Source: a phage
DNA length: 64,000 bases
Strand: one strand, 5' to 3'
Sequence record: PV730299.1
Shown: piece by piece, positions 1,051 to 46,164 of the stretch
Position numbering within the stretch: the stretch's first letter is position 1
How the letters are laid out: every line of letters starts with the position of its first letter
Made by a program: the position numbers and the translations under genes
The notes under the pieces: generated by a model
Database searches by the model: none
The model's input: the letters and a program-made list of their open reading frames with translations, nothing else
Told to the model about the DNA's origin: nothing

Positions 1051-1061
1051 CGAGGTGACCC

Positions 1062-15868: not shown

Positions 15869-16618
15869 TTATTTGGACAAGTAGAAGTTTGGAACTTCAG
15901 GGAAATACTCTGGTGGATATTCCCCTAGAACATCCTGTTTCACCTTCCCTTCGATATCTTCGCGGATACGACGAATCACTTCTTCCTGTTGTTCTGCTGC
16001 CATCACTTCTTCCATGGCTGAGTACAAGTTTTCTAGAATGACACCTACGTAGTTGTGGATGGCACGACAGGAGTTCTGATCATACTCCATATCCGGATGA
16101 ATCGCCAGGTCGACCTGATCACGCCCTACCAGCAGATGCCCAGACACCAGATTTATCGGGTATTTGAATACTTCACTAGATTTGACAGCAACTCCGTCGG
16201 CTTGCTTCAGCAGGAATTCGGTTTCAGAGAAGCGTTCAAGCAGTTCCGATGGGAATACCATATCGAGATTCTGACGCTTGCGACCAAAGAAGTACAGACA
16301 ATGCGCCAGTTTCAGGCATGCATCGGTGGCCATCTTCATGTGTGCTTTAGCGTGTTCATAACCAGCGATCACATCACGGACATAATCGTACAGGTCGGAA
16401 TGACCAAAACGGATGTCCTCTTCGAAGCGGATTGCTGTTTCACTGTCCGGTTTCACACCCAGAACATCGAAAATATTTTGTTCACGAACTGATCTTCCGT
16501 TTCGATCGAAACCCAGAACGCAACCGACTTCGAATCCACTCTTTTCAAAATTTGGGAGTTTCATATCAAGGCGAGCTGGGGTAAACTCTAACCCGAACAT
16601 ACGATAAATTTGTGACAT
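15869..16618 (-). CDS. hypothetical protein
   Basis: 249-aa ORF; no motif recognised. Confidence 0.45.
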   Translation of the reverse strand: MSQIYRMFGLEFTPARLDMKLPNFEKSGFEVGCVLGFDRNGRSVREQNIFDVLGVKPDSETAIRFEEDIRFGHSDLYDYVRDVIAGYEHAKAHMKMATDACLKLAHCLYFFGRKRQNLDMVFPSELLERFSETEFLLKQADGVAVKSSEVFKYPINLVSGHLLVGRDQVDLAIHPDMEYDQNSCRAIHNYVGVILENLYSAMEEVMAAEQQEEVIRRIREDIEGKVKQDVLGEYPPEYFPEVPNFYLSK

Positions 16619-16680
16619 GTTATAGCCTCATCATTTAGGATTACCTGTTCACGAATTATCCCTCGGAACGGGTTATAGAA

Positions 16681-17385
16681 CTATTTCTTCTTATGCATAC
16701 GACGTGCATCTTTCCACACAGACATCTGGCTCTGTTTCTGGAAGCGGGCAGTGCGCATGAAGAGAACGATCTCCCAGTACTGTGGCTCAATCTCGTAAAG
16801 CTGTGAACGGAACTGATCGGCGCGGTACAGCTTCACACAGTGATTGTACAGCGGATGGTTGGCGAAGCGCTTCAGGGCTTCCCAGGTGAGCTTCAGACGC
16901 GTCTTTGAGCGGTATGCCCGTTCGTTACGCAACTTGATCAGATCCTCAAACACCAACAGCCTGAGCTTCGGTGGCAGGTAGTGCATGTTGAGCCCCCAGA
17001 GGTATGTCACACCCTTCTCTCCAAAGGTGATACCATCACCCTTGACAAAGTTGAAGAAGAACACCAGAGGGTACATATCCCAGTAGGGTAGTTCATTCTT
17101 CGTCAGAGCATCATATTTGAAATAGAACATACGCCCGACTATATACCGCACACCTTGTACCGGACGTTTGTGATCAGCAAACGCCTGTTTCATATGGTTG
17201 GGGCTCAGGTTGGCGTCCTTAGACACACGCTCCATGAACCACACATGCGAACGGCGGATGTTACGCTTCGCCTCTGGACCGAAGTGTTGACGGTACTTGC
17301 GGATGTAACGCTTGACCAGCTCGGGGGCGTCCATCTCGGCCGGAAACAGCAACGGATCTTCTTCGCCAGCTGCATTCTTTGCCAT
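16681..17385 (-). CDS. hypothetical protein
   Basis: 234-aa ORF, basic C-terminus; GGAG RBS. Confidence 0.45.
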   Translation of the reverse strand: MAKNAAGEEDPLLFPAEMDAPELVKRYIRKYRQHFGPEAKRNIRRSHVWFMERVSKDANLSPNHMKQAFADHKRPVQGVRYIVGRMFYFKYDALTKNELPYWDMYPLVFFFNFVKGDGITFGEKGVTYLWGLNMHYLPPKLRLLVFEDLIKLRNERAYRSKTRLKLTWEALKRFANHPLYNHCVKLYRADQFRSQLYEIEPQYWEIVLFMRTARFQKQSQMSVWKDARRMHKKK

Positions 17386-17396
17386 TTGTCAACTCC

Positions 17397-17404
17397 TATA
17401 AATA
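17397..17404 (+). promoter_or_regulatory. T4-type late promoter-like box TATAAATA
   Basis: Exact TATAAATA 34 nt upstream of GTG start of gp54-like gene. Confidence 0.45.
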
Positions 17405-17438
17405 ATAACAGTTATTTTATTTAAGTGGAGTCCTCACC

Positions 17439-18383
17439 GTGGAAGACTATCGCAATTTTATCACACAGATATTACAGCGGGGCTTGTCGCGCAAGAACCG
17501 CTTCAGAGTGACCATCCCTCTACCACCAGGGATCTTTGACTCCAATGCCACTCTGGCTAATGACGGAAAGGCGTACAGAACCAATTCATCTTTTGGTGAC
17601 TTGTTTAAGCAGTCAGCCCGTATTGTAAACGCTTTCTTTGGAGGGACAAACCAGACGTCCCGTTCCCTTCAGATGATGTGTATGGTTGCCTCATTGCCAG
17701 GGGTTGGTATCGACACCACTCCAATGACAAACAACGGTAATCACATCAAGATGCCGAACAACAAGTCCAACGTCGACCTCGACTTGTCATTCTTATTAGC
17801 CAATGACTATTATGAGAAGTCTGTGATGGACAAGTGGAAGAGTCTGATCTTTGATCCACACACCACCAAAATGGGATATTACGAAGACTTCGTGACTGAC
17901 ATATGCATTGAACAGCTTGACACCGAAGATCAAGTGGTCCACCGCGTCTACATCGTCGAGGCTCACCCAATAAATTTCAGTTCTATTGAGCTGGATAAAG
18001 GCGCCACAGACCAGTTCAACCAATACAACATTTCTTTCTCTTACAATAAAGTGCTTTCGGAGACAGAATATGAAACACGCAGCCTTTCCAGCGATTTTCT
18101 TCCTCTCGGCATTGCTGACGCTCTTACCAGTGGTGACTGGGAAACTGCGGCCTCAAAAGCTGGACAGCTTTATCGCAAGGTGAAAGAAGGGAACTTCACA
18201 GGAGAGGCTCTCCTGGCTTACAAACAGCTTGACCAACTTGTAAACAACCTGGCTGGGATAAGCATACAGGACTTCGAGCGCATCTCGGTAGGTATCTCTC
18301 GTGACATCATGGGTAACGATAACCTGACGGCGGCGGAGAAGACAAGCCTGTTGGGAATATTACAAGACGTGATGGGGAAATAA
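17439..18383 (+). CDS. tail tube-family protein (gp19/gp54-like, baseplate tube initiator candidate)
   Basis: 314 aa; N-terminal RKNRFRVTI and CMVASLPGVGIDT...WKS pattern matching T4 gp19/gp48/gp54 tube fold; GTG start with GGAG RBS; TATAAATA box 34 nt upstream. Confidence 0.6.
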   Translation: MEDYRNFITQILQRGLSRKNRFRVTIPLPPGIFDSNATLANDGKAYRTNSSFGDLFKQSARIVNAFFGGTNQTSRSLQMMCMVASLPGVGIDTTPMTNNGNHIKMPNNKSNVDLDLSFLLANDYYEKSVMDKWKSLIFDPHTTKMGYYEDFVTDICIEQLDTEDQVVHRVYIVEAHPINFSSIELDKGATDQFNQYNISFSYNKVLSETEYETRSLSSDFLPLGIADALTSGDWETAASKAGQLYRKVKEGNFTGEALLAYKQLDQLVNNLAGISIQDFERISVGISRDIMGNDNLTAAEKTSLLGILQDVMGK

Positions 18384-18386
18384 AAA

Positions 18387-18404
18387 AGCCATCCGAAGAT
18401 GGCT
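18387..18404. terminator. bidirectional rho-independent terminator between convergent genes
   Basis: Hairpin AGCCATC-cgaa-GATGGCT flanked by AAAAA on one side and TGTTGA on the other. Confidence 0.6.
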
Positions 18405-18410
18405 TGTTGA

Positions 18411-19421
18411 TCAGTTAGACTTGAGATACCGCTCGAATTCGTCAATGGAAGCCGTGTTTCTGGCATTCGGTTGAGCCTGAGCCTGCGACGGCGCGGCCTG
18501 TTGCTGTTTCAGGCTGTCTTGAGCAGTTGGCTGATGTGTAGTCTGGGTGCTAGGAGCATGAGCCATCGTGGCTGCACCACCTTCAACCAGAGGCTGGTCA
18601 TCAGGGATTGCCAAAACTTTGCGCAGGCGCTTTTCCAGGGAGTCGTAGTCTTTGAAGTTAGCCGGATTGAAGAATTCAAACAGGCTGTGCTCGCGAGACC
18701 AGACGTCTTCCATATACGCTTCGTCATCACTCAGCGGGGCAGGGTTCTCCCACACCACCTTACTGAAGTTTGCCACCAGACCTTCCCAGTTCCCAAACTT
18801 CTTCTGCTCGCCAAAGAGCTTCAGGTTCAGGTTGGCACCTTCCCACAGATCGAACGGATCGAATTTAGGGTCGGTTGGGAACTTAGGATTCTGCGCCTGA
18901 TCCAGGATTTTCTTGATGGCGTTACCAAATTCCAGCAGGAAGACCTTGCCGTTGTTTTCCGGTACGTTGACATCTTTGATCACCAGGATGTTAGCGTAGT
19001 ATTTGGTGTCGGGTAGACGTTTCTTCAGGATGTCCTTCAGCTTTTCGTCGTTCGTTTCTTTCTGCTGCGCCCACAGCGGACGGTCATGGTCGCGCACCGG
19101 ATCGTCGTTGCCGAACGTCTGAGGTGAGTTCTCAATGTACCAACCACCAGGTCCCTGGAACTGATGCTTCATGATCATGGCACAAGGGGTGAGGATCTGA
19201 TCTTTATCGATCGTTCCTTCTTCCTGTGCCTTGAGGTCTACCAGCGGGACTGGCAGGAAGCGGATGATGTTCTCGGAGATACCATCTTTGTTCCAAGTCC
19301 ATTTCCAGATGCGAGGATCCTTCTGGAAACCGGACTTCTGGCCTTGCTGTGCAAGACGCGCCTGCATTGCTTCAGTTTGCTGACCACGGGACGCTTTCAG
19401 ACGATCGAATAAATTACCCAT
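18411..19421 (-). CDS. ssDNA-binding protein (T4 gp32-like)
   Basis: 336 aa; shares T4 gp32 blocks IRFLP, YANILV, PENNGKVF, WEGANL; acidic C-terminal tail. Confidence 0.8.
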   Translation of the reverse strand: MGNLFDRLKASRGQQTEAMQARLAQQGQKSGFQKDPRIWKWTWNKDGISENIIRFLPVPLVDLKAQEEGTIDKDQILTPCAMIMKHQFQGPGGWYIENSPQTFGNDDPVRDHDRPLWAQQKETNDEKLKDILKKRLPDTKYYANILVIKDVNVPENNGKVFLLEFGNAIKKILDQAQNPKFPTDPKFDPFDLWEGANLNLKLFGEQKKFGNWEGLVANFSKVVWENPAPLSDDEAYMEDVWSREHSLFEFFNPANFKDYDSLEKRLRKVLAIPDDQPLVEGGAATMAHAPSTQTTHQPTAQDSLKQQQAAPSQAQAQPNARNTASIDEFERYLKSN

Positions 19422-19488
19422 TTCTTAATTTCCTCTGTTTCCGCCCCTCAGGGCTATTCTGTTACATGTATTTTCAGTTTGCTACAAA

Positions 19489-19507
19489 GCGGGGTAATTA
19501 TACCCCG
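19489..19507 (-). terminator. hairpin terminator candidate
   Basis: GCGGGGTA-atta-TACCCCG(C) downstream of gene 19521..19760; weak U tract. Confidence 0.4.
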
Positions 19508-19520
19508 ATCTTACATTGAA

Positions 19521-19760
19521 TTAACCTTTAAGCACTTGATTTGCTGGGTCAATTTCAATAATGTCGAACACGTCCGAAAACGTCTTCTTACCTTCGTCGT
19601 GCGTGTGATACTCAACGACATATGAGCGACCATCAGGGGTAACGTAACGAATACGATCCGTCTGGTCAGCATTCTCGTTCAGGCTACCCACACGCCAGCG
19701 CATTGCGCCAGGAAGAAACTCGGCAGCTTTCATTGCGCTGTAAATTGATTCTTTGCTCAT
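19521..19760 (-). CDS. hypothetical protein
   Basis: 79-aa ORF followed by hairpin terminator. Confidence 0.4.
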   Translation of the reverse strand: MSKESIYSAMKAAEFLPGAMRWRVGSLNENADQTDRIRYVTPDGRSYVVEYHTHDEGKKTFSDVFDIIEIDPANQVLKG

Positions 19761-19767
19761 AATAGAC

Positions 19768-20013
19768 CTACACTAATTTCTTGGACTTTAGCGCGTCTTT
19801 GATCAGGCGCGCATCGGAGCACTCAGCTGTCAGTCGTGACAACAATGGTGCTGTAATCATCTTTTTGACTTTGGTCTCGTCTATGTCGTTCTCTTCACAG
19901 ACAGCTGCCAGAGTCTCAAGGATACTATCCTTGGTTTGGGCGGCGCGTAGTAGGACGATTTCAGAAAATAATTCTGGTGTCATCACAAGCGCTGGCTGTT
20001 TTTCGTCAGACAT
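19768..20013 (-). CDS. hypothetical protein
   Basis: 81-aa ORF, overlaps next gene by 8 nt. Confidence 0.4.
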   Translation of the reverse strand: MSDEKQPALVMTPELFSEIVLLRAAQTKDSILETLAAVCEENDIDETKVKKMITAPLLSRLTAECSDARLIKDALKSKKLV

Positions 20014-20251
20014 CGATTGTGTTCCCCTTACCCGAACCCTTCTTTATCGTACGCAAGACGTCCTTGAAGCCGTCTGGAGCTGATTGTGGTCCCTTCACCC
20101 CAGAGACAATCTTGGGAGCACCCACGACCATTTTAATCTCCCCTCCGCACTCAGTGCAGGGGTTGGATTCAGGCTCATGGCGATCTGCAATAGATTTACG
20201 CAGTATCATCGCGTTACCACAGCCCTTGCATTGATAATCATACAGCGGCAT
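20006..20251 (-). CDS. FmdB-family zinc-ribbon protein
   Basis: 81 aa; MPLYDYQCKGCG...CTECGG zinc ribbon. Confidence 0.5.
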   Translation of the reverse strand: MPLYDYQCKGCGNAMILRKSIADRHEPESNPCTECGGEIKMVVGAPKIVSGVKGPQSAPDGFKDVLRTIKKGSGKGNTIDV

Positions 20252-20552
20252 GGAACACCCCCACGGTTGTCAGTACGAAACGTACCATAATGATAACCAG
20301 CAACATCACTGTAGAAAACACTACACGCTTGATCATTTTATCGCGCATGTGGATGAACTGATATGAGAGGATAGCCTCGGCCTGTTGATCGGCACGAACG
20401 TTCGTGTCACGATGTGGGGATAGTGTGTAGAAGTTGATCTGGTACACATACGCATGAACCAGAGTGAAGAACGACTTCACCCAGACCAAGACAACCACTA
20501 ACAACAAAGCGAACGTCAGGAAGTTCGCCAACAACCAATAATCGACCATCAT
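20238..20552 (-). CDS. membrane protein
   Basis: 104 aa with two hydrophobic helices. Confidence 0.4.
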   Translation of the reverse strand: MMVDYWLLANFLTFALLLVVVLVWVKSFFTLVHAYVYQINFYTLSPHRDTNVRADQQAEAILSYQFIHMRDKMIKRVVFSTVMLLVIIMVRFVLTTVGVFHAAV

Positions 20553-21139
20553 ATACCTCTGTTGAAGTCTGGATTATTCTCAATGAAGTAAGAGCCACAA
20601 GCCATTATCGCAAACGAATCCACGAGGTCATCGATTGGCTTAGGATCCTTAACTTCCAACATATCCATTATACCGCGCATGCTAACATTGAACAGTGACT
20701 CGAAGTGAGCGATCATGGCGTGTTTATCCGCGTTGCCCTTGTCGGTGAACATCTTCTTCACATGGGATGGCGTCACGATCTGGAAGTCAAAATTGTTACG
20801 GCGCAGGGCTTGCTTCAACAGTGAGGTATTCTCTGCGGTCTGGCATATGTTGTTGGAGTTCTTAGAGTTGCCCATAGCATACCCTTCAAGAGTGATCACA
20901 TCCGGCTTCTCAGTCAACAGGACAGCCTCAGCCCATTTACAAATGTTATAGAAGCGTTCTTCTGGGGTCTCCCACTTCGGTTGCTTCATGATAAGGATAT
21001 TCTGACGAATCTGAGTGCAGTACTTCTCCACAGTATAATATGCGTAGAAGCGCAGATGATCAAAATCAAGAGGGTCTTTGTCATCCCAGAAGCACAGGGA
21101 TGGACAGCCATAGGAGTAGTCGATTCCGCAATATTTCAT
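20549..21139 (-). CDS. RuvC-like Holliday junction resolvase (tentative)
   Basis: 196 aa; N-terminal CGIDYSYG, ITLEGY and C-terminal DDLVDSFAIMACGSYF resemble RuvC/RNase-H-fold resolvase catalytic blocks. Confidence 0.5.
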   Translation of the reverse strand: MKYCGIDYSYGCPSLCFWDDKDPLDFDHLRFYAYYTVEKYCTQIRQNILIMKQPKWETPEERFYNICKWAEAVLLTEKPDVITLEGYAMGNSKNSNNICQTAENTSLLKQALRRNNFDFQIVTPSHVKKMFTDKGNADKHAMIAHFESLFNVSMRGIMDMLEVKDPKPIDDLVDSFAIMACGSYFIENNPDFNRGI

Positions 21140-21140
21140 G

Positions 21141-21183
21141 TAAATAGCCCATAACGAAGTTTCATTGGTGTATGGGCTATTTA
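21141..21183 (-). promoter_or_regulatory. 13-bp stem-loop immediately upstream of RuvC-like start codon
   Basis: TAAATAGCCCATA-17 nt loop-TATGGGCTATTTA ending 1-2 nt before ATG; no obvious SD. Confidence 0.35.
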
Positions 21184-21190
21184 CGCCGGG

Positions 21191-21682
21191 TTAACGGGTG
21201 ATGATTTTGCTATCAGGCAGGATCAGACCAGGGTGGTCCAGGTTCTTCTGCATCTGTTGGATACTCTGCAGGATCACGGTAGTGTCGATGTGGCGTTTCA
21301 CTTTGCGCGCTTCATCACCGTAGGAGATCTGCCCCTGAGGATCGATGTAGTGGGCTGTCACAACCTGCAGATCATAACCACACTTGATCAGGTACTTGGC
21401 AATGTTGCTAACTTCGAGAGACAGGGACTCACCGTCCACACCGATGTTGGCTGAGTAGACGATTACGCCATTTTCTACTGCTTTTGGTTCAAACAAAACC
21501 ATACCAGCGATCGTCTGGATCAAAGGAACTCCCTCGGTATCGAAAGCCACCTGATCGAACGCACCGATGAACTCATCCGGCACTTTACCTTCGGCATCAG
21601 AAACTGTGTGTTTCATAAGGTCCAGGACGTGTTGTTGTACTTCCTCAATCGGAGCACGTTCAACGGGTTTTTCGTTTTGCAT
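21191..21682 (-). CDS. hypothetical protein
   Basis: Start moved to MQNEK (GGAG RBS, 8-nt spacing). Confidence 0.4.
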   Translation of the reverse strand: MQNEKPVERAPIEEVQQHVLDLMKHTVSDAEGKVPDEFIGAFDQVAFDTEGVPLIQTIAGMVLFEPKAVENGVIVYSANIGVDGESLSLEVSNIAKYLIKCGYDLQVVTAHYIDPQGQISYGDEARKVKRHIDTTVILQSIQQMQKNLDHPGLILPDSKIITR

Positions 21683-22190
21683 TACTTTTCTCCAGTTCAT
21701 AATCGCGCTCCACAACGTATTGGTAGACACGCATCTTAATATAGTCAGCACTGCCTGCTGAAGACAGTACCATCCATCCACTACTAAGGGCATTCATCTT
21801 ATATTGACCAACACCCTCTTGAAAATAACTTTTAATCTGTTCCAGCTTTCGCCCACGATGATAATACGAGATGAGTTCGCCGATGACAATACAATCTGGA
21901 TAATGCTTTTCCAATGTATTGATGTTGCGGTGAACATATACGGGTAGAACTTCTTCATCGTCGATAGGGCTGTAGTATGGGTCTACGATGACCACTTGTA
22001 GACCATAACGCAGCAGGTCTTTGACACCCAGCCGACAGAACTTATAATCTTCGTGTTTCATTGCCACATGGAGGATATTCTCTTTCTTGGCATAATCGGT
22101 CAGGAAGATAAAGAAGTCTGTGTTGGGATCGGGATATTGTATAGACAGTTCTTTGCCTATTTCACTAAAACAAAATCCGCGCATTTTCAT
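21660..22190 (-). CDS. hypothetical protein
   Basis: 176-aa ORF; no motif recognised. Confidence 0.4.
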   Translation of the reverse strand: MKMRGFCFSEIGKELSIQYPDPNTDFFIFLTDYAKKENILHVAMKHEDYKFCRLGVKDLLRYGLQVVIVDPYYSPIDDEEVLPVYVHRNINTLEKHYPDCIVIGELISYYHRGRKLEQIKSYFQEGVGQYKMNALSSGWMVLSSAGSADYIKMRVYQYVVERDYELEKSNAKRKTR

Positions 22191-22197
22191 TCCTCGT

Positions 22198-22205
22198 TAT
22201 AATTA
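22198..22205 (+). promoter_or_regulatory. late promoter-like box, variant TATAATTA (or sigma70 -10)
   Basis: 28 nt upstream of ATG at 22234. Confidence 0.25.
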
Positions 22206-22233
22206 CTCTTACAATATACCGTGGAGATACATT

Positions 22234-23040
22234 ATGAATTTACCATCATTGCCCAGAACAGAAAAGACATATAAAAGCGACTTTTGGCCTACTGTGATCA
22301 AATATCGCGCCTTTACTGCGGGGCAACAAACTTTATTACTTCAGGTGTCAGATCCGCAAACGCCGATTGAAGAACGCGCGGCCATGATGGAGAGTCTCTT
22401 TAGCGAGTGTGTAAATGCAGGCGCACCTTTCAGTAAACTGCCAATCGGCGTTGTTGAGGAAGTGTTCATCCGCATGCGCATGATCTCCATCGGTGAATTG
22501 ATGAAGATTCGTTATAAGTGCAATAATCAGATTGAAGAAACGATCGATCTGGGAGATGGTCAAGAAAAGCACCAGATGGTTCCCTGTGAGCAGGAACTGA
22601 CTCTACCTATCCCGTTGAACAATGTCAAATGCATTGCTCAGGACGGCTTCCGGGAAACATTTGACCTGCCAGGTGGATATCACCTCAAGATGCGCCAACC
22701 TTCCTTCTCGGACGCTACGGCACTGTCTGATGCTGCAAGTGTTGAGATGATGCTGGCCACCTTTATCGACTGTCTGTACGATGATGACGGTCAGGTGTGG
22801 AAGGTTGAGAATCCTGAAGAAATCGGAATCACTCCAGAAGAGGCTACTGAGCGCCGCCGTGTGAAAGAAGCGTTTGTTGAGTGGGTGAAGGATAACATCG
22901 AATCAGATGTTATTGACAGCATTACGAAGAACTTCTTCCACAAAATACCGCGCATCCACTACAAGAGTTCGATCAAGTGTCCGAAATGTGGTAAGGAGCA
23001 CAAAATCGAATTCAATAGTATTAATGAAATTTTCATTTAA
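22234..23040 (+). CDS. hypothetical protein with C-terminal zinc ribbon (possible baseplate-associated)
   Basis: Start moved to MNLPSL (GGAG RBS); C-terminal CPKCGKEH; first gene of plus-strand block ending with gp5-like and gp25-like genes. Confidence 0.45.
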   Translation: MNLPSLPRTEKTYKSDFWPTVIKYRAFTAGQQTLLLQVSDPQTPIEERAAMMESLFSECVNAGAPFSKLPIGVVEEVFIRMRMISIGELMKIRYKCNNQIEETIDLGDGQEKHQMVPCEQELTLPIPLNNVKCIAQDGFRETFDLPGGYHLKMRQPSFSDATALSDAASVEMMLATFIDCLYDDDGQVWKVENPEEIGITPEEATERRRVKEAFVEWVKDNIESDVIDSITKNFFHKIPRIHYKSSIKCPKCGKEHKIEFNSINEIFI

Positions 23041-23189
23041 TGTTTGAAACTGATTTATTATCCTACTTCGTGATGTGTGATGAATTGAAGTTACACGGCT
23101 ATAGCATATTTGAAATCAACGAGTCGATGCCATGGCATCTTGACTTGTTAACCGAAGCCCTCAAGGTCAGGTTGTCTAAGAAACAGTAA
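23040..23189 (+). CDS. small ORF (49 aa)
   Basis: ATG overlapping stop of upstream gene (TAATG); ends just before a strong terminator. Confidence 0.25.
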   Translation: MFETDLLSYFVMCDELKLHGYSIFEINESMPWHLDLLTEALKVRLSKKQ

Positions 23190-23213
23190 TCCCGCTTCGG
23201 CGGGATTTTTATT
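23188..23213 (+). terminator. rho-independent terminator
   Basis: ATCCCGC-ttcg-GCGGGAT followed by TTTTTATT, after plus-strand genes ending at 23040/23189. Confidence 0.65.
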
Positions 23214-23510
23214 GGCTTAACTGCAAAATAGGTTAACACGCGTTCTCTTTACCTAAAATTGTTATAATGGGCTTGTTCCCGAGTCATTTGTTGGTGTTTG
23301 TCTGTTTTGAATCAGATTGTCAGTAAAATACCATTTTTCAAGGAGTGTTCTGGGGTGTACAGTTATTGCCTCGCCCTTATGCCTCCATGGCATTGGAATG
23401 GTGCTGCCCGCATAGGGCGGTTTGATGAGCGAAGCGAATAGGATCGAATAAAACAAATAAAATGAACGGAAGCAGAGCTTCCTATAGTATATAAGGCAAA
23501 ATCAGCTGCG

Positions 23511-23518
23511 CATAAATA
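23511..23518 (+). promoter_or_regulatory. late promoter-like box, variant CATAAATA
   Basis: 34 nt upstream of gp5-like ATG, same spacing as the exact boxes. Confidence 0.35.
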
Positions 23519-23552
23519 CCTTCAAATCCTTGTTTGACAACCGGAACTCAAT

Positions 23553-25163
23553 ATGTTAGACAATATGAGATGGTTTTACGGCACCGTTGAAGATGTCAAC
23601 GATCCAGACCAAAACGGGCGCGTCGCCGTCCGCATATATGGCGTACACACCGACGATCCCGTCCTCCTGCCTACAGACAAACTCCCATGGGCGAAGGTAC
23701 TGATGCCTGCTTCTAACGCCTCCTCTGCTGGTTTAGGTTGGTCTCCAACGGGTATCATTCCTGGTACTGAGGTTATGGGGTTCGCCCTTGACGAAGCATA
23801 CCAGAATTTACGCATCACCTGGACTTGGACTGGTTCAAGCCCTACTGATGGCGCCGACACAAACCCGCTGGCTCTCGGGCAGGTCGTTCAATCTGTAGAA
23901 CGTCAGGCGTACAACGCTGTCACTGACGTTCCTGTGAAACAAGAAGACGAACCACAACCAGATCCACAACCACCTGTTGGTGGGTATGATCCAGAGAAGT
24001 GGATGACAATCGCTCGTGGCGAATTGGGTATCAAGGAGTACGCCGGAAAGTTCAATAACAACCCGCGCATTATAGAATATCACAAGACAACCTCCCTTGG
24101 TGCTTCTGAAGATGAAGTGTCGTGGTGTGCGGCGTTCGTGGGTTGGGTTATGATACAGGCTGGATACACGTCTACACGCTCCGCTCTTGCCCGATCTTAC
24201 CTTACATGGGGCACTGCACTGTCAGCACCACAATATGGCGCTATCGTAGTCTTCCGGCGTGGTAACAACCCTACATTTGGACACGTAGCGTTTGTGCAGA
24301 AGTTCGATGCAAACTATGTCTGGTGTATTGGTGGCAACCAATCCGATTCAGTGAAGGTCAGTCGTTTCAGACGTTCTTCGGTCTTGGGATATCGTTGGCC
24401 TGGTCCTGCTAACACAGCCACAGCCGCGCCTGCGCAGCAGAATGGTAAATGGTCAGAACCTATCCCAGATCGTACTCCAAAGGAACAACCGACTCCGGCT
24501 CCTACTGGGCGAGTACAGGATATTGACAACACTGGAGAAACCATGGTTCCGGCTGCGGGTGGCTCTAAATACCCGTACAATAACGTCATGGTGTCCCGAG
24601 CTGGGCATATTATGGAAGTGGATGACACCCCTGGTGGTGAACGTCTTCATTGGATGCATAAGTCTGGGTCTTACAAGCAAATGTTGCCGGATGGTGATGT
24701 GGTCAACAAGTCCGTCAAAGACCACTATGACCTGACGATGTTCAACAAGCGTTATTATGTCGGCGGGGACCACAACCTGACGGTCAAAGGAACTGAAGTT
24801 CAGCGCAAGACAGGTGAGGTCTATCATTTGCATTCCAACAATTACTCCAACGTGGTTGCGGGCACAGCGCTGATGAAATTCAGTGACCTAGCCGAGTTTC
24901 AAGCGCAGAATATTCTGCGCATTATCTGCGAGACTCTGGAGGTCGGTGGGACATTGAAGGTTCCTAAGATTCTAACGACTGAGATCATCGCTGACAAACT
25001 GACTGTCGCTCAGACGATCAATGGTAACATCATATATGCCGAAGGTGCTGGTCGCGCTTCTTCTCTGTCAGGTGCAACCCCTGCATCCCCTACGGGTCCG
25101 GGTGAGATTGACATCAAGGCAGAATTAAAAGACAATGGTGGTAATTTCGGCACCAAAGAGTAA
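23553..25163 (+). CDS. baseplate central spike/hub protein with CHAP peptidase domain (gp5-like)
   Basis: 536 aa; N-terminal OB-like YGTVEDVNDPDQNGRVAVRIYGVHTD; central Cys/His amidase pair (SWCAAFVGW ... FGHVAFV) typical of CHAP/NlpC-P60; C-terminal beta-helix-like region. Confidence 0.7.
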   Translation: MLDNMRWFYGTVEDVNDPDQNGRVAVRIYGVHTDDPVLLPTDKLPWAKVLMPASNASSAGLGWSPTGIIPGTEVMGFALDEAYQNLRITWTWTGSSPTDGADTNPLALGQVVQSVERQAYNAVTDVPVKQEDEPQPDPQPPVGGYDPEKWMTIARGELGIKEYAGKFNNNPRIIEYHKTTSLGASEDEVSWCAAFVGWVMIQAGYTSTRSALARSYLTWGTALSAPQYGAIVVFRRGNNPTFGHVAFVQKFDANYVWCIGGNQSDSVKVSRFRRSSVLGYRWPGPANTATAAPAQQNGKWSEPIPDRTPKEQPTPAPTGRVQDIDNTGETMVPAAGGSKYPYNNVMVSRAGHIMEVDDTPGGERLHWMHKSGSYKQMLPDGDVVNKSVKDHYDLTMFNKRYYVGGDHNLTVKGTEVQRKTGEVYHLHSNNYSNVVAGTALMKFSDLAEFQAQNILRIICETLEVGGTLKVPKILTTEIIADKLTVAQTINGNIIYAEGAGRASSLSGATPASPTGPGEIDIKAELKDNGGNFGTKE

Positions 25164-25236
25164 GTTGGTATAAGTTTAGTGGCAGAGGGACAGCACGTCT
25201 CTCTGCTCCTTATAGGCATCCTGAGAGGATCGCGAA

Positions 25237-25617
25237 ATGAAAGAGTATAAAGATGTCGATCTGAAGTTCGGCATGCATCCGGTGACCAAAGACGTCACTA
25301 TGAAATCAGGTGTGTATGCTGTCTTACAATCCGTGCGGAATATCGTCATGTCTTCAGTCGGGGACTGGCCCACTTATCCTGGGATCGGCGCGGGGCTTTA
25401 TGGGCTGTTGGGTGAAAACACGACACCGACTATCCAGGTAGATGTGAAGAACAAAGTAGAGGACGCTATCGCCCTGTATGAACCCAGAGCAGAGGTAGAA
25501 GAAGTCACGGTGAGTCTGTCAGAGGATTACCATTCTCTGGGCGTGACCATCACATTCTATGTGGTCAACAATCCAGATCCAATAACAGACACCGTGTGGT
25601 TGAAAAGGACGAATTAG
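25237..25617 (+). CDS. baseplate wedge protein (gp25/GPW family)
   Basis: 126 aa; typical gp25-like size and pattern. Confidence 0.75.
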   Translation: MKEYKDVDLKFGMHPVTKDVTMKSGVYAVLQSVRNIVMSSVGDWPTYPGIGAGLYGLLGENTTPTIQVDVKNKVEDAIALYEPRAEVEEVTVSLSEDYHSLGVTITFYVVNNPDPITDTVWLKRTN

Positions 25618-25964
25618 AATTTCGTCCTGAATGCCGGAGCCACGACTAACATGAAGTGGCTCAATAACCTGAACATCTCTTTACCGTTGAATTGGTAGAG
25701 GATAATCATCGGCCTGACGTCAACCACTGATCCCTCCAGCTTCTTGTTCAACACAAATCTGGAACCCACACTGACCTGTCCGCGCTCTTCGTCTCCTGGT
25801 TTGTCGTAGACCACGCAACTGGTGGCATAACCGATTTGAGATCCATCCTCAGACCGCAAGGGCAGCATATGCCCTTCAGACATCAGATGATGCAGGTTCT
25901 GGTATAAACCTTTGTCTGGTATGGGGACTGCCAGCTGCATTCTCAACTCTTTGTAATCTTGCAT
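25614..25964 (-). CDS. hypothetical protein
   Basis: 116-aa ORF convergent with gp25-like gene. Confidence 0.4.
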   Translation of the reverse strand: MQDYKELRMQLAVPIPDKGLYQNLHHLMSEGHMLPLRSEDGSQIGYATSCVVYDKPGDEERGQVSVGSRFVLNKKLEGSVVDVRPMIILYQFNGKEMFRLLSHFMLVVAPAFRTKF

Positions 25965-25969
25965 GAGGA

Positions 25970-26431
25970 CTACTCCGCCAGGGTGATCACAACCATATTT
26001 AAGACTGTGTCGATAGCTCGGCCTGTTTCCTCTTCATGGAGGGTTTCGGCTCGGAGGTGCACGTCGGTGATGAAATTGTCGATGTGCATTGAAGTCAGAT
26101 ACGGGCGGTGTTGACTGACCGGGCGGTTGACCAGAACATAATTGCGCAATGTGTTGAAGTCCTGATGAGAGCACCCCGTTGTATCGATACGAAGGAAGCG
26201 TTCGTTGTGACTTGTCTTCAACTCAGTCACCTTGCCAAGGTAGACCAGAGGTCCATTGCGACCGATACGGAACATGACATCAACAACAGACTTGAAGATT
26301 TCGCGTTCAATCAGTGCGGTGGGTGACCAGCAGATCTCTTCTTTGTCGTCGGCGTACAGGGTGTCGATCACCAGAGGGAGTTGAATGTAACCGAAGTTGT
26401 GCAGTGGGTTGGTGAGTACTTTGTTTGTCAT
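25970..26431 (-). CDS. hypothetical protein
   Basis: 153-aa ORF; start carries conserved AGGAACTATATC-ATG initiation motif. Confidence 0.4.
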   Translation of the reverse strand: MTNKVLTNPLHNFGYIQLPLVIDTLYADDKEEICWSPTALIEREIFKSVVDVMFRIGRNGPLVYLGKVTELKTSHNERFLRIDTTGCSHQDFNTLRNYVLVNRPVSQHRPYLTSMHIDNFITDVHLRAETLHEEETGRAIDTVLNMVVITLAE

Positions 26432-26499
26432 GATATAGTTCCTGCTTTTAATTTGTGGCGAATGCCAATGAATTACTGGGAAGTATAAGCGCAGGGATT

Positions 26500-26530
26500 A
26501 TAGAAGTAAAGCCCCTCAATGAGGGGCTTC
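26500..26530 (-). terminator. rho-independent terminator
   Basis: 9-bp stem AAGCCCCTC/GAGGGGCTT followed on minus strand by TTACTTCTA; downstream of NrdH-like gene. Confidence 0.55.
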
Positions 26531-26536
26531 GGCTTG

Positions 26537-26761
26537 TCAGCGTTTAAGGCTGGCGGCGAGTCCATTAACGTCGGTCACGGTCTGGTCAGCGAGGACGATT
26601 ACAGGCATCGACACGCGCGGCTTACCCGTCAACTGCTGAAGTTCTTCCAGCCGGTAATCTTTGTCCAGCTTGAGGATCTTGTGTTCCAGCCCTTTCATTT
26701 TGCACAGATTTTCGGCTGTTACACACTGAGCGCAACCTTGTTTGGAATAGATCGTAATCAT
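26537..26761 (-). CDS. glutaredoxin/NrdH-like redoxin
   Basis: 74 aa; redox motif CAQC near N-terminus; adjacent to nrdB/nrdA. Confidence 0.65.
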   Translation of the reverse strand: MITIYSKQGCAQCVTAENLCKMKGLEHKILKLDKDYRLEELQQLTGKPRVSMPVIVLADQTVTDVNGLAASLKR

Positions 26762-26770
26762 TTCTCACCT

Positions 26771-27874
26771 TTAAGCGAATTTGAGGCCATCGGATACCGA
26801 ACCAGTCAGTACACCCATCAGATAATCAGGAGCTTCCGCTTCCTGCAACGCGTACTGCATTGCCTTATTATCTAGCCAGTCATTAATCCATGGGACTGGG
26901 TTCTCCTTGCGAGGTTCACCGGGATATGGATGCCCGATAGCGCCCATCCGGTGGGTTGCCAGCCAGTCTACCATCTGATGAAGGATCTTGGCGTTCAGCC
27001 CCAGGATGGAACCGTCTTTGAATAGGTAGTTCGCCCACTCCTTCTCCTGATGGACCACGTCCAAGAACATCTGGGTCATCTCACCACGCAGTTCCTCACG
27101 GATGATTGCAAAGTCGGGGTCCATACCAGGCAGGCGGTTTAGCAGCGTCTGGGTCAGGATCAGGTGATCCTGCTCATCACGGGCGATCTGTCGAATGATT
27201 TTGGCATTGCCTTCCATCTTCTTCTGAAACTGTGTGAATGCCCAAGAGCATGCAAAGGACACGTAGAAGCGGATGCCTTCCAGTGTGTTGGCAGCAAACA
27301 GAGCACGCCAGAATGCGCGTTTGGCATTCATCAGATCTTCTCGGGTGAAGATGCGTCCGGCCATACGCATGCCACTGTACTGTACCATGTCATCGTAGTA
27401 CACACTGATCTGGTGAGCACAGTCCACGATCTCCACAACATCCAGTACGTGGTCAAACACGATACCTGGATCGTTCACAGTATTGCGCAAAATGTGGGTG
27501 TACGATAAAGAGTGAATGGCTTCCTGGCGCGTCCATTCAAGGACAGCAAACTGCATTTCAGGGGTAGACGCCCATGGACCAAACGCCTCGAACGGAGCCG
27601 CACCCTGGATAGAGTCCAGCATGGTCTGGCGCTTCAGGTTGCTGAAGTAGACATGTTTCTCTGCTTCGTTCAGAGTAGCGAAGTCTGCCTTGTCCTTGGT
27701 GATGTCCACCTCTTCAGGACGCCAGAACTGACTGAGACCTTTCTCATACCACTTCTGTACGAATGGCCAGGCCACGACATCGTAACGCTGGATGCTCACT
27801 GGGTCACCGAAGAACGGTAGACCAGTGTTGTCCGAGCTTGGGTCGAATACGGAGAATTGTTTCTGTTCGCTCAT
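26771..27874 (-). CDS. nrdB: ribonucleotide reductase class Ia beta subunit
   Basis: 367 aa with ferritin-like diiron/tyrosyl radical fold pattern; adjacent to nrdA. Confidence 0.9.
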   Translation of the reverse strand: MSEQKQFSVFDPSSDNTGLPFFGDPVSIQRYDVVAWPFVQKWYEKGLSQFWRPEEVDITKDKADFATLNEAEKHVYFSNLKRQTMLDSIQGAAPFEAFGPWASTPEMQFAVLEWTRQEAIHSLSYTHILRNTVNDPGIVFDHVLDVVEIVDCAHQISVYYDDMVQYSGMRMAGRIFTREDLMNAKRAFWRALFAANTLEGIRFYVSFACSWAFTQFQKKMEGNAKIIRQIARDEQDHLILTQTLLNRLPGMDPDFAIIREELRGEMTQMFLDVVHQEKEWANYLFKDGSILGLNAKILHQMVDWLATHRMGAIGHPYPGEPRKENPVPWINDWLDNKAMQYALQEAEAPDYLMGVLTGSVSDGLKFA

Positions 27875-34871: not shown

Positions 34872-35441
34872 CTAGACAGGCTTAACACCGAGGAACTTGG
34901 CAATGTCAGCAGCCAGGTTTTTACCCTTGCTGATGTCGTGTTCTTTACCGCCGACAGTAACGATCACATACGGGTCATCTTCACCACCGAAGTTCACGGT
35001 GATCGCCTTGCCGATGCCAGGGATGCCAGAGTATTCGAACTCAGTGCGACCACTCTTGCGAGACTTGCCAGCACCCAGTGCTTTACCGATCATCTTGTCC
35101 ATGTTCGCCAGTTCCTGAGCATAGGATTCGGTCACTTGGCCTTTGTTGGCAGACTTGCCAAAGAAGAATTCGAAGCCGTCATGGACAGCAACGACTTCCT
35201 GACCTTGGGAGATACCGTGAGTCTGGTCTGGGGTCAGCTTCACCTTGATGGTGTTGCCGTTGGTTAACTCCAGGTTGTAGACATCCGCCTGATTGTCAGG
35301 GGTGATCTGGGTCACGGTAGCGCCGGAACACCACTGGGTGCCGTCAGCTTGCTTGGTGATGGATACGGTCTTACCTTGGACACCAGCGTGGGTCTGAGGT
35401 TTAGCGGCTTGTTCTTTAAAATATTCGATAAAAGGTTTCAT
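34872..35441 (-). CDS. hypothetical protein, probable late/structural gene
   Basis: 189 aa; GAGGAG RBS; TATAAATA box about 25 nt upstream of ATG. Confidence 0.45.
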   Translation of the reverse strand: MKPFIEYFKEQAAKPQTHAGVQGKTVSITKQADGTQWCSGATVTQITPDNQADVYNLELTNGNTIKVKLTPDQTHGISQGQEVVAVHDGFEFFFGKSANKGQVTESYAQELANMDKMIGKALGAGKSRKSGRTEFEYSGIPGIGKAITVNFGGEDDPYVIVTVGGKEHDISKGKNLAADIAKFLGVKPV

Positions 35442-35498: not shown

Positions 35499-38459
35499 TC
35501 AGATCTTAATCTGCATGTTGCCACCCAGGGACTGCTCGTACTCGCTGTATGCGCCTTCCCCGTAGTCTCGTGCCCACTGGTCAGACTGCTGGGCACTATC
35601 CAGAGTCATCAGGTTTGGTTCAGTCGGGTTGTAACCCTTGGACTTCGCATCCCGGTACAGAGTCTGCAGGTACTGGTTGGCGCGGTCAATCTGAGCTTTG
35701 AACTCGCGATATGCCCCTTCAGTTGTGTTGCGGCGGAAGGTGATATCCCAGTCCACGTTCAGAGTCTGACCATCACGGCTTGCATAGATCTGCCAATCCA
35801 GGTCGCGACCTTTTGGTGCGTTGTCGCGGATGGAGTCGGCGTATGCCGCAAGGTCGTCCTTCGGATTGTGCGACGTGCTTTTCAGAAGTAGTGCATGACC
35901 CATACCACCGTTTGACTGAAGAGACCATTTTCCTGTTTCTCTTCCCAGGCGTTCTATGTTGTTGAGTTGGTTTATCGACAATTCAGAAGAGTCAAATAAT
36001 ACCACATCACGTTTTTTGGGGGTTCTCACATAAGGGGTGAGATCAATGTCGATCATCCGGTTTATAAATTCTACCACTTCAGCTTGTTTCTTTGGCAATG
36101 TGGTATTGATATCCGGCGTGTTTGCTACTTTCTCCAGGCGTTTGTTTTCTGCGCTTATCATGGATAGCATAATTTGTGTAACTTTGCCGTCAGACAAGTT
36201 GTAATCATTCCAAATCACTTCACCTTTATCCGTGATGGTTATATCGTTCAAGAACACCTGGTTTGGGTTGTATGACTGACTTTTCAACTGTTGGAGGTTT
36301 CTGGAAAGATATTCCATTTTTGATGAAATCTCATCAATCACACTCTGGACCATATCTTTGTTTAAAGGAAGTTCATATGTCTTTGGATTGTTCAGGGTAC
36401 GCCCTTTCTGAGAGACAATTGGGGTGAATGCAACTTTACCTTTGTCGTAGTAATAGGTCACGTTGGTTATCATAGAAGCACCGGCGTATTTTCCCGTTTC
36501 GGGGAAATTGACATCCCACCGAATGGACATACCGTTGACAGTCTCACCAAACACCATGGCGTTGCGTGGCATCTTCAGGGTTCCAGAGTTGACCAGATCA
36601 TCGCCTTGGGCATTCAGGTCGATAGAACCATAGATGGCCCCGGTAATACGATCTTTCAGCATCAGGGTCTTGTCGCCCTTCTCTGGGATGATTTCCAGCG
36701 GGTGCTTGCCACGCGGAGGCTCTTTGATGAGTTCCAGCAGAGCAGTGTTCCCAGGCTTCACACGATTCAGGACAGCGTCTGACACTGTCAGAGTCCAGTT
36801 TGCGGTTTCTACATAACCCCAGCCCCGAGAACGGCGAATGGCTTTGATAGGGTATGGAGCGCTTGTTGGCACTGCGCTAATTTCCCATTTCCCAGTGTAC
36901 TGGGTCTTGGCAACCTCAAAGATGGACGCAATTACCGCATTGGCGACGTCACGGGCGCTGCCTTTGGCCACGTTCTCCTCTTCAGCAATTTCGCTGAAAA
37001 CTGAGTATTGAATGAAACCAGCGAGGACGTTTGTGAAGTTGACAACGATAACCAACCCGCCTGCCGTCGTGTAACGACCAGCGCCCACACGACGGATGTT
37101 CTCACCAGGAAGAATAGAAGTGTCCAGCCCAACGTTGGTATCAATGATACCCAGAACACGAGCGATGAAACCGCTGTCACGTAATTGATCAACACTGGTT
37201 GCACCCTCGGTCGAATCCGATGCGGATTTAGACACTTTGTTCAACTTGATAGAGACAAGGGTTTCCCCGTTGACACCGATGATATCCCATTCAGTACCCT
37301 GCTCGTTCGAGATGCGGGCAATCTTGCGCTTTGAATTGATGGCACCTTCGTAACGCCCGTTTTTGACCACAACAGAGGCAGTGGCAGCATCAGTCGCACT
37401 TGCTGCATTTGAAAAGTCTGGGTCGGAAATACTGATGTCGACGTCACCGTTTTGAGAACGCATGCGAACACCGTTTTTGAATCGTTCCACGTTTACTTCT
37501 CGAGCACCAAGTCGTTTGGCATCAATAACAGCAGTTCCAGAACCGATAATGTTGGCTGGGTTATTTCTGTCTGAACTGTTTTGAGAACCTTTCCAAAATT
37601 TTGTGGACGCCGTGGTGAAATCATTCAGGATACTGATAGGGACTTGCGGTAATTTCAACTGACGAGCAATGAAATCAGCACTTTGCCCACGCACAGGTTT
37701 CTCATTCATGTATGCGCCAACATACACACCCGGCTCATTGTAGTGGGGAGCGATATTTGCCGTGTTCATGCGGCCTCTCTCCTTACCAGCCCATAACAAC
37801 ATGGGCTGATCCCCGTTTGAAGTCAATTTCCATCCGTTGGAATTATCAGCAGAAGATGACACACCCACATCCGGAGTATTGTTCTGAACCGGAACGTCAC
37901 CGACCTTGTCTGGATCATCCCAGGTGATACCCTGCATCTTCGGACCGTCGAATACCTGAGCCGGATCTTTACCCTTGCGGACCAGCCACACATAACCACG
38001 GTCAGGGACAGGCGCGTAGGTCAGGTCCATGACATTCAGTTTCTGTTTCAGGCCGGACTGGCGGATGATCTTAGGAATCAGGGTCATACCGCGATCCAGC
38101 GCTTTCTTAGAGAAGTTGACAGCAAAGCCATCGATGGTCTTGCCCAGAGGAGTCGCCATGAATTGTTTGGTCGCTTCGATCATGGAAGCGATAACGCGCA
38201 TTGGGTTCTTGAAGCGAGCGATGGCGTCAGGATAGACGGAGCCGCGCTTCTGGCCGATGAAAACCTGACGAACGCTCTTGCCCAGCCCCTGAGGGGTATA
38301 GAACTGAATACGGTATTCCTTTTCATCTTCGTCGATGAAGGTGAAGAACACATCGCCTGCGTTCTTCTTACCCATGGTCAGCTCATACGGAGCGGAGTTG
38401 AACGCTTCGTCCAACTGATCTCTTTCCTGCATGAACTGGAGGAAACTTAGCTTTGACAT
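35499..38459 (-). CDS. large hypothetical protein (986 aa)
   Basis: Long uninterrupted ORF with AGGAG RBS; no polymerase, ATPase or nuclease motifs recognised; hairpin terminator downstream. Confidence 0.55.
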   Translation of the reverse strand: MSKLSFLQFMQERDQLDEAFNSAPYELTMGKKNAGDVFFTFIDEDEKEYRIQFYTPQGLGKSVRQVFIGQKRGSVYPDAIARFKNPMRVIASMIEATKQFMATPLGKTIDGFAVNFSKKALDRGMTLIPKIIRQSGLKQKLNVMDLTYAPVPDRGYVWLVRKGKDPAQVFDGPKMQGITWDDPDKVGDVPVQNNTPDVGVSSSADNSNGWKLTSNGDQPMLLWAGKERGRMNTANIAPHYNEPGVYVGAYMNEKPVRGQSADFIARQLKLPQVPISILNDFTTASTKFWKGSQNSSDRNNPANIIGSGTAVIDAKRLGAREVNVERFKNGVRMRSQNGDVDISISDPDFSNAASATDAATASVVVKNGRYEGAINSKRKIARISNEQGTEWDIIGVNGETLVSIKLNKVSKSASDSTEGATSVDQLRDSGFIARVLGIIDTNVGLDTSILPGENIRRVGAGRYTTAGGLVIVVNFTNVLAGFIQYSVFSEIAEEENVAKGSARDVANAVIASIFEVAKTQYTGKWEISAVPTSAPYPIKAIRRSRGWGYVETANWTLTVSDAVLNRVKPGNTALLELIKEPPRGKHPLEIIPEKGDKTLMLKDRITGAIYGSIDLNAQGDDLVNSGTLKMPRNAMVFGETVNGMSIRWDVNFPETGKYAGASMITNVTYYYDKGKVAFTPIVSQKGRTLNNPKTYELPLNKDMVQSVIDEISSKMEYLSRNLQQLKSQSYNPNQVFLNDITITDKGEVIWNDYNLSDGKVTQIMLSMISAENKRLEKVANTPDINTTLPKKQAEVVEFINRMIDIDLTPYVRTPKKRDVVLFDSSELSINQLNNIERLGRETGKWSLQSNGGMGHALLLKSTSHNPKDDLAAYADSIRDNAPKGRDLDWQIYASRDGQTLNVDWDITFRRNTTEGAYREFKAQIDRANQYLQTLYRDAKSKGYNPTEPNLMTLDSAQQSDQWARDYGEGAYSEYEQSLGGNMQIKI

Positions 38460-46156: not shown

Positions 46157-46164
46157 TATAAATA
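46157..46164 (+). promoter_or_regulatory. T4-type late promoter-like box TATAAATA
   Basis: Exact TATAAATA 35 nt upstream of ATG at 46200; overlaps RNase H start region on opposite strand. Confidence 0.45.

Follow-up and report, generated by a model that had tools for sequence, protein, structure and literature searches.

Baseplate hub genes in separated islands of a ViI-like phage genome, and a conserved structured element upstream of gp5

The DNA analyzed here is a 64,000-nucleotide stretch of a phage genome (record PV730299.1; the whole stretch is hereafter called the window), in which plus-strand baseplate genes between positions 17,439 and 25,617 are interleaved with minus-strand genes. 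We hold with high confidence that this is the normal, family-wide layout of the ViI-like phages (Ackermannviridae), with the baseplate hub genes split into small late-gene islands. These islands consist, respectively, of gp48, gp53, a gp27-like gene and the tape-measure gene; of gp54 alone; and of gp26, an open reading frame (ORF) of 49 amino acids (aa), gp5 and gp25. All of them lie in opposite orientation within a long stretch of minus-strand genes for replication, recombination and nucleotide metabolism. The layout has already been published, the paper on Shigella phage AG3 having placed the baseplate genes in three separated regions (PMC3121705); the only new item is a conserved structured element before gp5.

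The relationships of the window emerge from a megablast search of positions 17000-26000 against phage genomes. The matches to Enterobacter phage fGh-Ecl02 and Escherichia phages PC3 and PH4 are full-length at 98.8% identity, those to Escherichia phages A221 and RPN242 show 98.7% identity, and that to Shigella phage AG3 (phiSboM-AG3; Agtrevirus, Ackermannviridae) 93.6%, while a band of 230 records at 60-80% identity takes in Kuttervirus, Taipeivirus and most of the remaining matches. At least 80% of the query is colinear in 44 phage records. Based on its identity and colinearity with AG3 and fGh-Ecl02, the window is therefore a segment of an Agtrevirus-like Ackermannviridae (ViI-like) phage genome. 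The GenBank taxonomy line of fGh-Ecl02 (ON212266.1) reads Cvivirinae; Kuttervirus, yet the record is 93-94% identical to the Agtrevirus AG3 in this region; most Kuttervirus records being only 60-80% identical, this label is probably wrong.

AG3, fGh-Ecl02 and the Kuttervirus Se-G are annotated with the same gene order and strands as the window, Taipeivirus and Limestonevirus agree in both over the segment compared (gp26 to the start of gp5), and the arrangement recurs in 20 IMG/VR contigs, each some 150-160 kb long. Among the closest relatives (AG3; fGh-Ecl02; PC3, A221, RPN242) the positions of terminators and late promoters are also identical, and AG3 differs by points only, for instance in a shorter annotated gp26 start and in a 41-aa ORF where the window has a full 81-aa Zn-ribbon gene. 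On the full map of AG3, the third plus-strand island (gp48, gp53, gp27-like, tape measure) is present, and the main structural module ends with the wedge gene gp6. The comparison extends to the distant Vibrio phage K476, whose gp5 is about 40% identical to the gp5-like protein of the window. Here, an island of gp26, small ORFs, gp5 and gp25 is antiparallel to its flanking genes, gp54 is antiparallel and wedged between gp2 and gp32, and the entire module of gp2, gp54, gp32, gp33 and RuvC is inverted relative to the gp5 island. Since the interleaving is retained in K476, it is locally old and conserved. In the same phage a short gp5 homologue (295 aa) is followed by a separate 168-aa ORF (segment L006, 8977-10379 and 12872-17546).

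Whole-genome synteny had been suggested as a check in the original prediction, which was made from the window's letters alone; comparison of gene order gives a layout common to the Ackermannviridae genera examined and rearranged in K476. The prediction had also allowed that the interleaving could be an assembly artefact. We regard an error of assembly or orientation in PV730299.1 as having a negligible chance of being the explanation, as 44 independently sequenced genomes with at least 80% of the 9-kb query agree with it in order and strands, as do the IMG/VR contigs, four genera being represented.

The plus-strand genes of the two islands in the interval are as follows:

17439-18383, plus strand: gp54-like baseplate tail-tube initiator (phrog_3629, E=4.8e-177; phrog_45 tail tube, E=1.5e-24)
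22234-23040, plus strand: gp26-family baseplate hub protein (PF12322, E=1.5e-46, 159.2 bits with a cut-off of 24.5; phrog_150)
23040-23189, plus strand: conserved 49-aa ORF (phrog_9633, E=2.9e-39)
23553-25163, plus strand: gp5-like central spike (PF06714, E=1.9e-12; PF05257 (CHAP), E=6e-11; phrog_430, E=2e-154)
25237-25617, plus strand: gp25 baseplate wedge protein (PF04965, E=3e-8, 33.7 bits with a cut-off of 27.2; T4 gp25 chain 5iv5_T, E=1e-11)

The earlier reading of 17439-18383 as a tube protein of the gp54/gp19 family is borne out by phrog_3629, phrog_45 and a BLASTP match to T4-type gp54 (E=1e-5 over 90 aa); profile and PDB sequence searches gave no Pfam match and no PDB sequence match for this protein. 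Likewise, the plus-strand gp5-like spike and gp25-like wedge are upheld by PF06714, PF04965 and the matches to T4 chains. The product of 22234-23040, which had been taken for an unknown zinc-ribbon protein, is instead a hub protein of the gp26 family (PF12322). A GGAG Shine-Dalgarno sequence and the way in which relatives are annotated both support its start at 22234, and the CxxC knuckle at its C-terminus (IKCPKCGKEH), which aligns with IKCPECGKTH of T4-type gp26, is a putative zinc site. The 49-aa ORF directly follows gp26, the same relative position as that of T4 gene 51, and weakly matches the 'baseplate hub assembly catalyst' family phrog_634 (E=4.4e-4); BLASTP found no similarity to T4-type gp51. 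On the strength of position and profile, it is possibly a small gp51-like hub assembly factor.

The gp5-like protein matches the T4 gp5 PDB chains in two stretches (E ~1e-30). The first, at residues 1-93, falls in the N-terminal OB domain, which scores 48.1 bits on PF06714 (cut-off 25); the second lies in the C-terminal region, a candidate beta-helix needle, where PHROG matches extend over residues 325-500 and there is no Pfam Gp5_C match. A profile search of the center of the protein found no lysozyme family, and the CHAP domain (PF05257) occupies residues 187-262 instead, a replacement already described for CBA120 (PMC3184105). A PDB search for solved Ackermannviridae baseplate proteins returned only T4 and other remote homologues.

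Although the block from 22234 to 25617 does hold plus-strand baseplate genes, it is not the uniform unit first supposed, as it includes the 49-aa ORF, a terminator and a gap:

23188-23207, plus strand: intrinsic terminator closing the gp26-like/49-aa unit, an 8-base-pair (bp) GC-rich stem followed by UUUUUAUU, with a folding free energy (dG) of -15 kcal/mol, conserved across genera

A non-coding gap of 345 bp, annotated in no GenBank record, separates this terminator from the gp5-like gene. With the terminator and the gap inside it, the block must therefore comprise at least two transcription units.

Beyond these islands, the real plus-strand genes of the window are the gp27-like and tape-measure-like genes (1-3008) and a 255-aa gene, and all its real plus-strand genes are virion genes, known or likely. 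Mass spectrometry of LIMEstone1 virions detected gp48, gp27, the tape measure, gp54, gp26, gp5 and gp25, with 7 peptides from the gp54 orthologue ORF50 (35.06 kDa) (PMC3296691). The Sajous1 virion gave similar results, including 24 spectra for the 'baseplate tail tube', and the same 2024 study reports a shared core gene order across Vi01-like phages (PMC10892097). The calculated masses of the window's proteins agree with the LIMEstone1 table (PMC3296691):

gp54-like protein: 35.15 kDa; LIMEstone1 ORF50, 35.06 kDa
gp26-like protein: 30.69 kDa; LIMEstone1 ORF59, 30.56 kDa
gp5-like protein: 58.39 kDa; LIMEstone1, 58.18 kDa
gp25-like protein: 13.98 kDa; LIMEstone1, 14.04 kDa
tape-measure-like protein: 71.07 kDa; LIMEstone1, 70.95 kDa
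255-aa gene product: 28.27 kDa; LIMEstone1 'unknown structural protein' ORF93, 28.32 kDa
189-aa gene product: 20.23 kDa; LIMEstone1 'unknown structural protein' ORF80, 20.28 kDa

The matches to ORF93 and ORF80 make the 255-aa and 189-aa products likely virion proteins. The virion proteomics proposed alongside the original prediction has in this way already been answered in relatives.

The mosaic had further been contrasted with a contiguous baseplate cluster in classical T4. The T4 arrangement does differ, but the contrast was overstated. The hub cluster of a T4-type genome is itself split in orientation (54<-48<-29<-28<-27<-51, then ->26->25->uvsY), and in that same genome (record MZ234025) gp5 lies about 36 kb from gp25, whereas in the window it sits between gp26 and gp25. 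T4 has its gene 5 in a separate 53-5-6...12 cluster and its gp54 at the end of the 51-to-54 operon, whereas gp54 of the window stands alone between gp2 and gp32; unlike in T4, gp48, gp53, gp27 and the tape measure make up a third island in the window's family, and gp5 bears a CHAP domain where that of T4 bears a lysozyme. The similarities are equally extensive. Homologous gp54, gp26, gp5 (OB domain and C-terminal region) and gp25 are common to the window and the T4-type phage ACG-C40; both have the late promoter TATAAATA along with gp55 and gp33; gp26 is followed in the window by a possible gp51-like gene, as in T4; and neither has its baseplate genes gathered at a single site or confined to a single strand. 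In T4-type phages, gp26 and gp25 also abut a recombination gene, uvsY. A different state is seen in Sinorhizobium phage phiM7 (Emdodecavirus), where gp48-gp53-x-hub-peptidase-gp25-HNH-gp6-gp7 are contiguous on one strand, and in a T4-like cyanophage, where gp25 and gp6 are adjacent. Thus, the same inner-baseplate genes are contiguous and co-oriented in phiM7 and T4-like cyanophages, whereas in the window's family they form islands among replication and recombination genes. From these gene orders, a contiguous cluster of the phiM7 kind looks to have been split to give the Ackermannviridae layout.

This comparison bears on whether the plus-strand islands could be recent, horizontally acquired, moron-like modules in a lineage-specific mosaic. 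Such a history might be read from their own promoters and terminators, which recall those of mobile cassettes, and from the slightly lower GC content (0.455) at 22-24 kb. However, the GC dip falls on the 345-bp non-coding gap, the islands encode essential baseplate hub proteins, and their positions are conserved in Agtrevirus, Limestonevirus, Kuttervirus, Taipeivirus and even the Vibrio phage with its gp5 of about 40% identity, while phiM7 holds the same genes contiguously on one strand. The conservation across genera together with the contiguity in phiM7 therefore speaks for an ancient split and rearrangement of a single cluster, and we consider recent acquisition very improbable.

How such scattered genes might be expressed is best explained by T4-type late transcription of small island units, of which we infer the timing, the use of the promoters and the insulating role. 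Each island would be a self-contained transcription unit with its own short T4-type late promoter, 28-35 nucleotides (nt) before the start, that would be read by the host RNA polymerase carrying two factors whose genes lie in the window, the phage sigma factor gp55 and the co-activator gp33, together with the gp45 clamp, whose gene is located in another part of the genome (annotated in AG3, beyond the window's span). It would stop at a hairpin where the minus-strand genes converge upon it, and the opposite orientation and the hairpins would shield it from early and middle read-through transcription. Because such late promoters are minimal and position-independent, islands of this kind would work wherever they are placed. 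The relevant features of the window are:

17397-17404, plus strand: late promoter TATAAATA of the gp54-like gene, exact, 34 nt ahead of the start, position conserved in AG3 and Kuttervirus Se-G
22198-22205, plus strand: late-promoter-like TATAATTA of the gp26-like gene, one mismatch, 28 nt ahead of the ATG
23511-23518, plus strand: late promoter CATAAATA of the gp5-like gene, one mismatch, 34 nt ahead of the ATG, invariant in four genera (Porf084 in the AG3 paper, PMC3121705)
35467-35474, minus strand: exact, intergenic TATAAATA before the 189-aa gene (34872-35441, minus strand; start codon at 35441)
46157-46164, plus strand: exact, intergenic TATAAATA before the 255-aa gene (46200-46967, plus strand)
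19768-20013, minus strand: gp33 late-transcription co-activator (PF16805, E=8.5e-18; phrog_254)
44824-45615, minus strand: gp55-like late sigma factor (phrog_234, E=6.3e-52)
18386-18405: hairpin at the convergent junction of the gp54-like gene and gp32, dG -11.3/-11.7 kcal/mol, z ~-4.2, minus-strand tail UUUUUUAUUU
25606-25628: hairpin over the overlapping stops of gp25 (plus strand) and a 116-aa gene (minus strand), dG -15.6/-12.5 kcal/mol

The exact T4 late-promoter octamer TATAAATA occurs 3 times in the window against 0.67 expected by chance, each time in intergenic DNA and 25-35 nt ahead of a start codon. When up to one mismatch is allowed, 6 of the 19 matches precede genes on the same strand, in a window of which no more than about 6% is intergenic. 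Kuttervirus, Taipeivirus and Limestonevirus have the exact octamer at the position of the gp26 promoter, and late promoters of this type are listed before gp2, gp5 and gp6 in the AG3 paper (PMC3121705). No late promoter was found in the interval between gp5 and gp25, and gp25 is probably co-transcribed with gp5. This interval does contain a further stable hairpin:

25181-25207, plus strand: hairpin between the gp5-like and gp25-like genes, dG -19.1 kcal/mol, z=-4.25, with compensatory differences in AG3 and Se-G

Within a gp5-gp25 transcript, it may act as an attenuator, a processing site or an RNA-stability element.

The two junction hairpins had been described as bidirectional terminators. 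Both are indeed stable and GC-rich (z ~-3.8 to -4.2) and sit at the convergent junctions, and AG3 annotates the one at gp54/gp32 as a terminator on both strands and the one at gp25 as a minus-strand terminator. The bidirectional part of the description does not stand, as at both a U-tract is present on the minus-strand side only, the plus-strand tails being GUUGAUCAG and GAAUGCCGG.

Several observations weigh against the proposed mode of transcription. The plus-strand sides of the hairpins being devoid of U-tracts, these are no more than candidate terminators for the island transcripts. The promoter of the gp26-like gene is TATAATTA here and not TATAAATA, and gp25 lacks a separate promoter. 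The literature searched yielded no Ackermannviridae transcriptome, and late timing and promoter use are projected from T4. Finally, the main late structural module of AG3 (gp23 to gp6) shares its strand with the replication and early genes. Late expression therefore does not require opposite orientation, which makes the insulating role speculative, and strand is no clean divider of early from late genes.

We next turn to the gap before gp5, a region matched by 272 phage records, over which the Dickeya phages (Limestonevirus) are nearer to the window, at 93.3% identity, than is the 60-80% band of relatives. When aligned across four genera, it has a constant order of parts, namely the terminator described above, an extended -10-like element, a conserved core, a small hairpin and the late promoter of gp5:

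23260-23268, plus strand: extended -10-like element TGTTATAAT (TGnTATAA), its TATAA core invariant in four genera
23346-23441, plus strand: structured RNA-like element, comprising the P0 hairpin (23346-23361), an H-type pseudoknot (S1, S2; 23379-23401), P-b (23403-23421) and P-c (23425-23439)
23468-23482, plus strand: small conserved hairpin GGAAGC-AGA-GCUUCC after the element, dG -8.1 kcal/mol, with an A-U to U-A change in Taipeivirus

The extended -10-like element is a possible host-type promoter, a function suggested by its sequence. The structured element, which Agtrevirus, Limestonevirus, Kuttervirus and Taipeivirus all retain, may be the feature of the interval that is most distinctive in function, and we put at roughly even the chance that it is so as a cis-regulatory leader or small RNA coordinating the split baseplate genes. 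Its core is conserved beyond what synonymous sites would allow, a 22-nt stretch, TTATGCCTCCATGGCATTGGAA, having one variable position across genera, and its P-c hairpin bears tandem G.A pairs. A full paralogue of the core, in the orientation of gp6 and followed by a similar late promoter and leader, occurs upstream of gp6, and a partial copy upstream of gp45, both outside the window (AG3 paralogues: L005 29801-29875, minus strand, and L004 ~37880-37960, minus strand).

The predicted pairing was examined in an alignment of 18 distinct sequences that combines the copies upstream of gp5 and gp6. In the pseudoknot, P-b and P-c, standard pairs fill all 342 of the 342 pair cells, and compensatory changes are found in 6 of the 19 pairs, distributed over all four helices; in slid controls, with the 3' partners shifted, pairing drops to 25-54%. 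One such change is a C-G pair in the P-b helix of the window's clade relative to AG3. The G-U pairs favor the strand of gp5, and in Kuttervirus and in the window's clade the copies upstream of gp6 carry an insertion that extends P-c from 2 to 7 bp. These features, the copies before gp6 and gp45 and the upstream -10-like element all argue for a functional RNA, as does the finding of neither an Rfam family nor a conserved small ORF. Within one genome, the copies upstream of gp5 and gp6 sometimes have an identical P-b helix sequence, which suggests concerted evolution of the two.

A covariance model of the element places a single copy at 23378-23441 of the window (86.6 bits) and recovers two copies from AG3. 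It found none in the Vibrio phages VP-1 and K476, a T4-type phage, a cyanophage, phiM7 or 45 distant gp5 loci, and neither sequence nor covariance-model searches of the 64-kb window returned a second copy. Rfam models run on 16000-27000 gave nothing at E <= 1 besides one spurious lncRNA match elsewhere, and those run on the gp6-upstream paralogues gave no match. E. coli genomes were without a match to the element; the bacterial loci with the pattern (80 among the matches listed) score at most 26.6 bits, as against 66-88 bits for true copies, and are chance hits. In a Kuttervirus IMG/VR contig near the gp6-upstream region (L044 ~600-900, minus strand), Rfam tmRNA models match weakly at E 0.16-0.57; these matches are far below gathering scores, and though one stretch resembles a tag-reading frame, they are probably due to chance.

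Other identities for the gap sequence were considered and rejected. A peptide gene (MPPWHWNG... or MALEW...) loses its ATG in Taipeivirus or in the gp6-upstream copy and has its frame shifted by 1-nt indels, and the 64-aa coding sequence annotated in the gap of Klebsiella phage May is not conserved. The string UGAUGAGCGAAGCGAA recalls a hammerhead ribozyme, whose core is not conserved in Kuttervirus and has no Rfam match, and the GCTT boxes are wrongly spaced for a MotA-type middle promoter.

On the other side, only three or four clades are sampled, and the independent compensatory events are correspondingly few (~7-8); the structure was derived from and tested on the same sequences; and more distant relatives are without the element. 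As the late promoter lies downstream of it, late mRNAs would not contain it, and a role at the level of DNA, as a protein-binding site or an origin-like element, is also a candidate. Our best guess is that pre-late transcripts carry the element as a structured leader, or that it is a small RNA. As a working analogy for the element, T4 gene 32 has a leader pseudoknot, and T4 e, soc and 49 have late promoters nested in structured early leaders. Common to the element and these T4 cases is an H-type pseudoknot or structured leader ahead of a gene, the late promoter being nested on the downstream side of the structure. The element differs from them in showing no sequence or Rfam similarity, in lying more than 110 nt from the ribosome-binding site and in having no conserved pairing with the translation initiation region of gp5.

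The minus-strand genes around and between the islands complete the picture:

16681-17385, minus strand: gp2-like DNA end protector, divergent from the gp54-like gene (phrog_429, E=1.6e-67; so annotated in AG3 and fGh-Ecl02)
18411-19421, minus strand: gp32 single-strand DNA-binding protein (PF08804, E=1e-56)
20006-20251, minus strand: Zn-ribbon FmdB-like putative regulator (PF09723, E=3e-8; phrog_385)
20549-21139, minus strand: RuvC-like Holliday junction resolvase (PF02075, E=6e-5; phrog_159, E=1.4e-53)

PF08804, PF02075 and phrog_159 support the original prediction in placing a gp32-like single-strand DNA-binding protein, a RuvC-like protein and other minus-strand genes between the islands; the FmdB-like protein scores 34.0 bits on PF09723, slightly under the curated cut-off of 34.4. 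The prediction's description of the surroundings as an early-gene block applies to these replication and recombination genes but not to the flanking gp2: this neighbor of gp54 is a late or virion-type gene, and the surroundings are thus not purely early. Upstream of gp32, a terminator hairpin (CGGGGTA-TAAT-TACCCCG) holds a one-mismatch late-promoter octamer, TATAATTA (19495-19502, minus strand), which spans its loop and stem 73 nt ahead of the gp32 start and could be a late promoter of gp32 or a chance match.

The layout itself is ordinary for Ackermannviridae and makes a clear example of how minimal, position-independent late promoters of the T4 type would let essential structural genes scatter among replication genes. 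It is the non-coding element alone that deserves follow-up. We are evenly divided on whether it represents a previously undescribed structured RNA motif, that is, a phage-specific cis-regulatory leader or small RNA that would couple baseplate genes separated by rearrangement. If it is a true functional RNA, it would constitute a new class of phage regulatory RNA in a family widely used in biocontrol and phage therapy, and would give a handle on how the expression of dispersed baseplate genes is coordinated.

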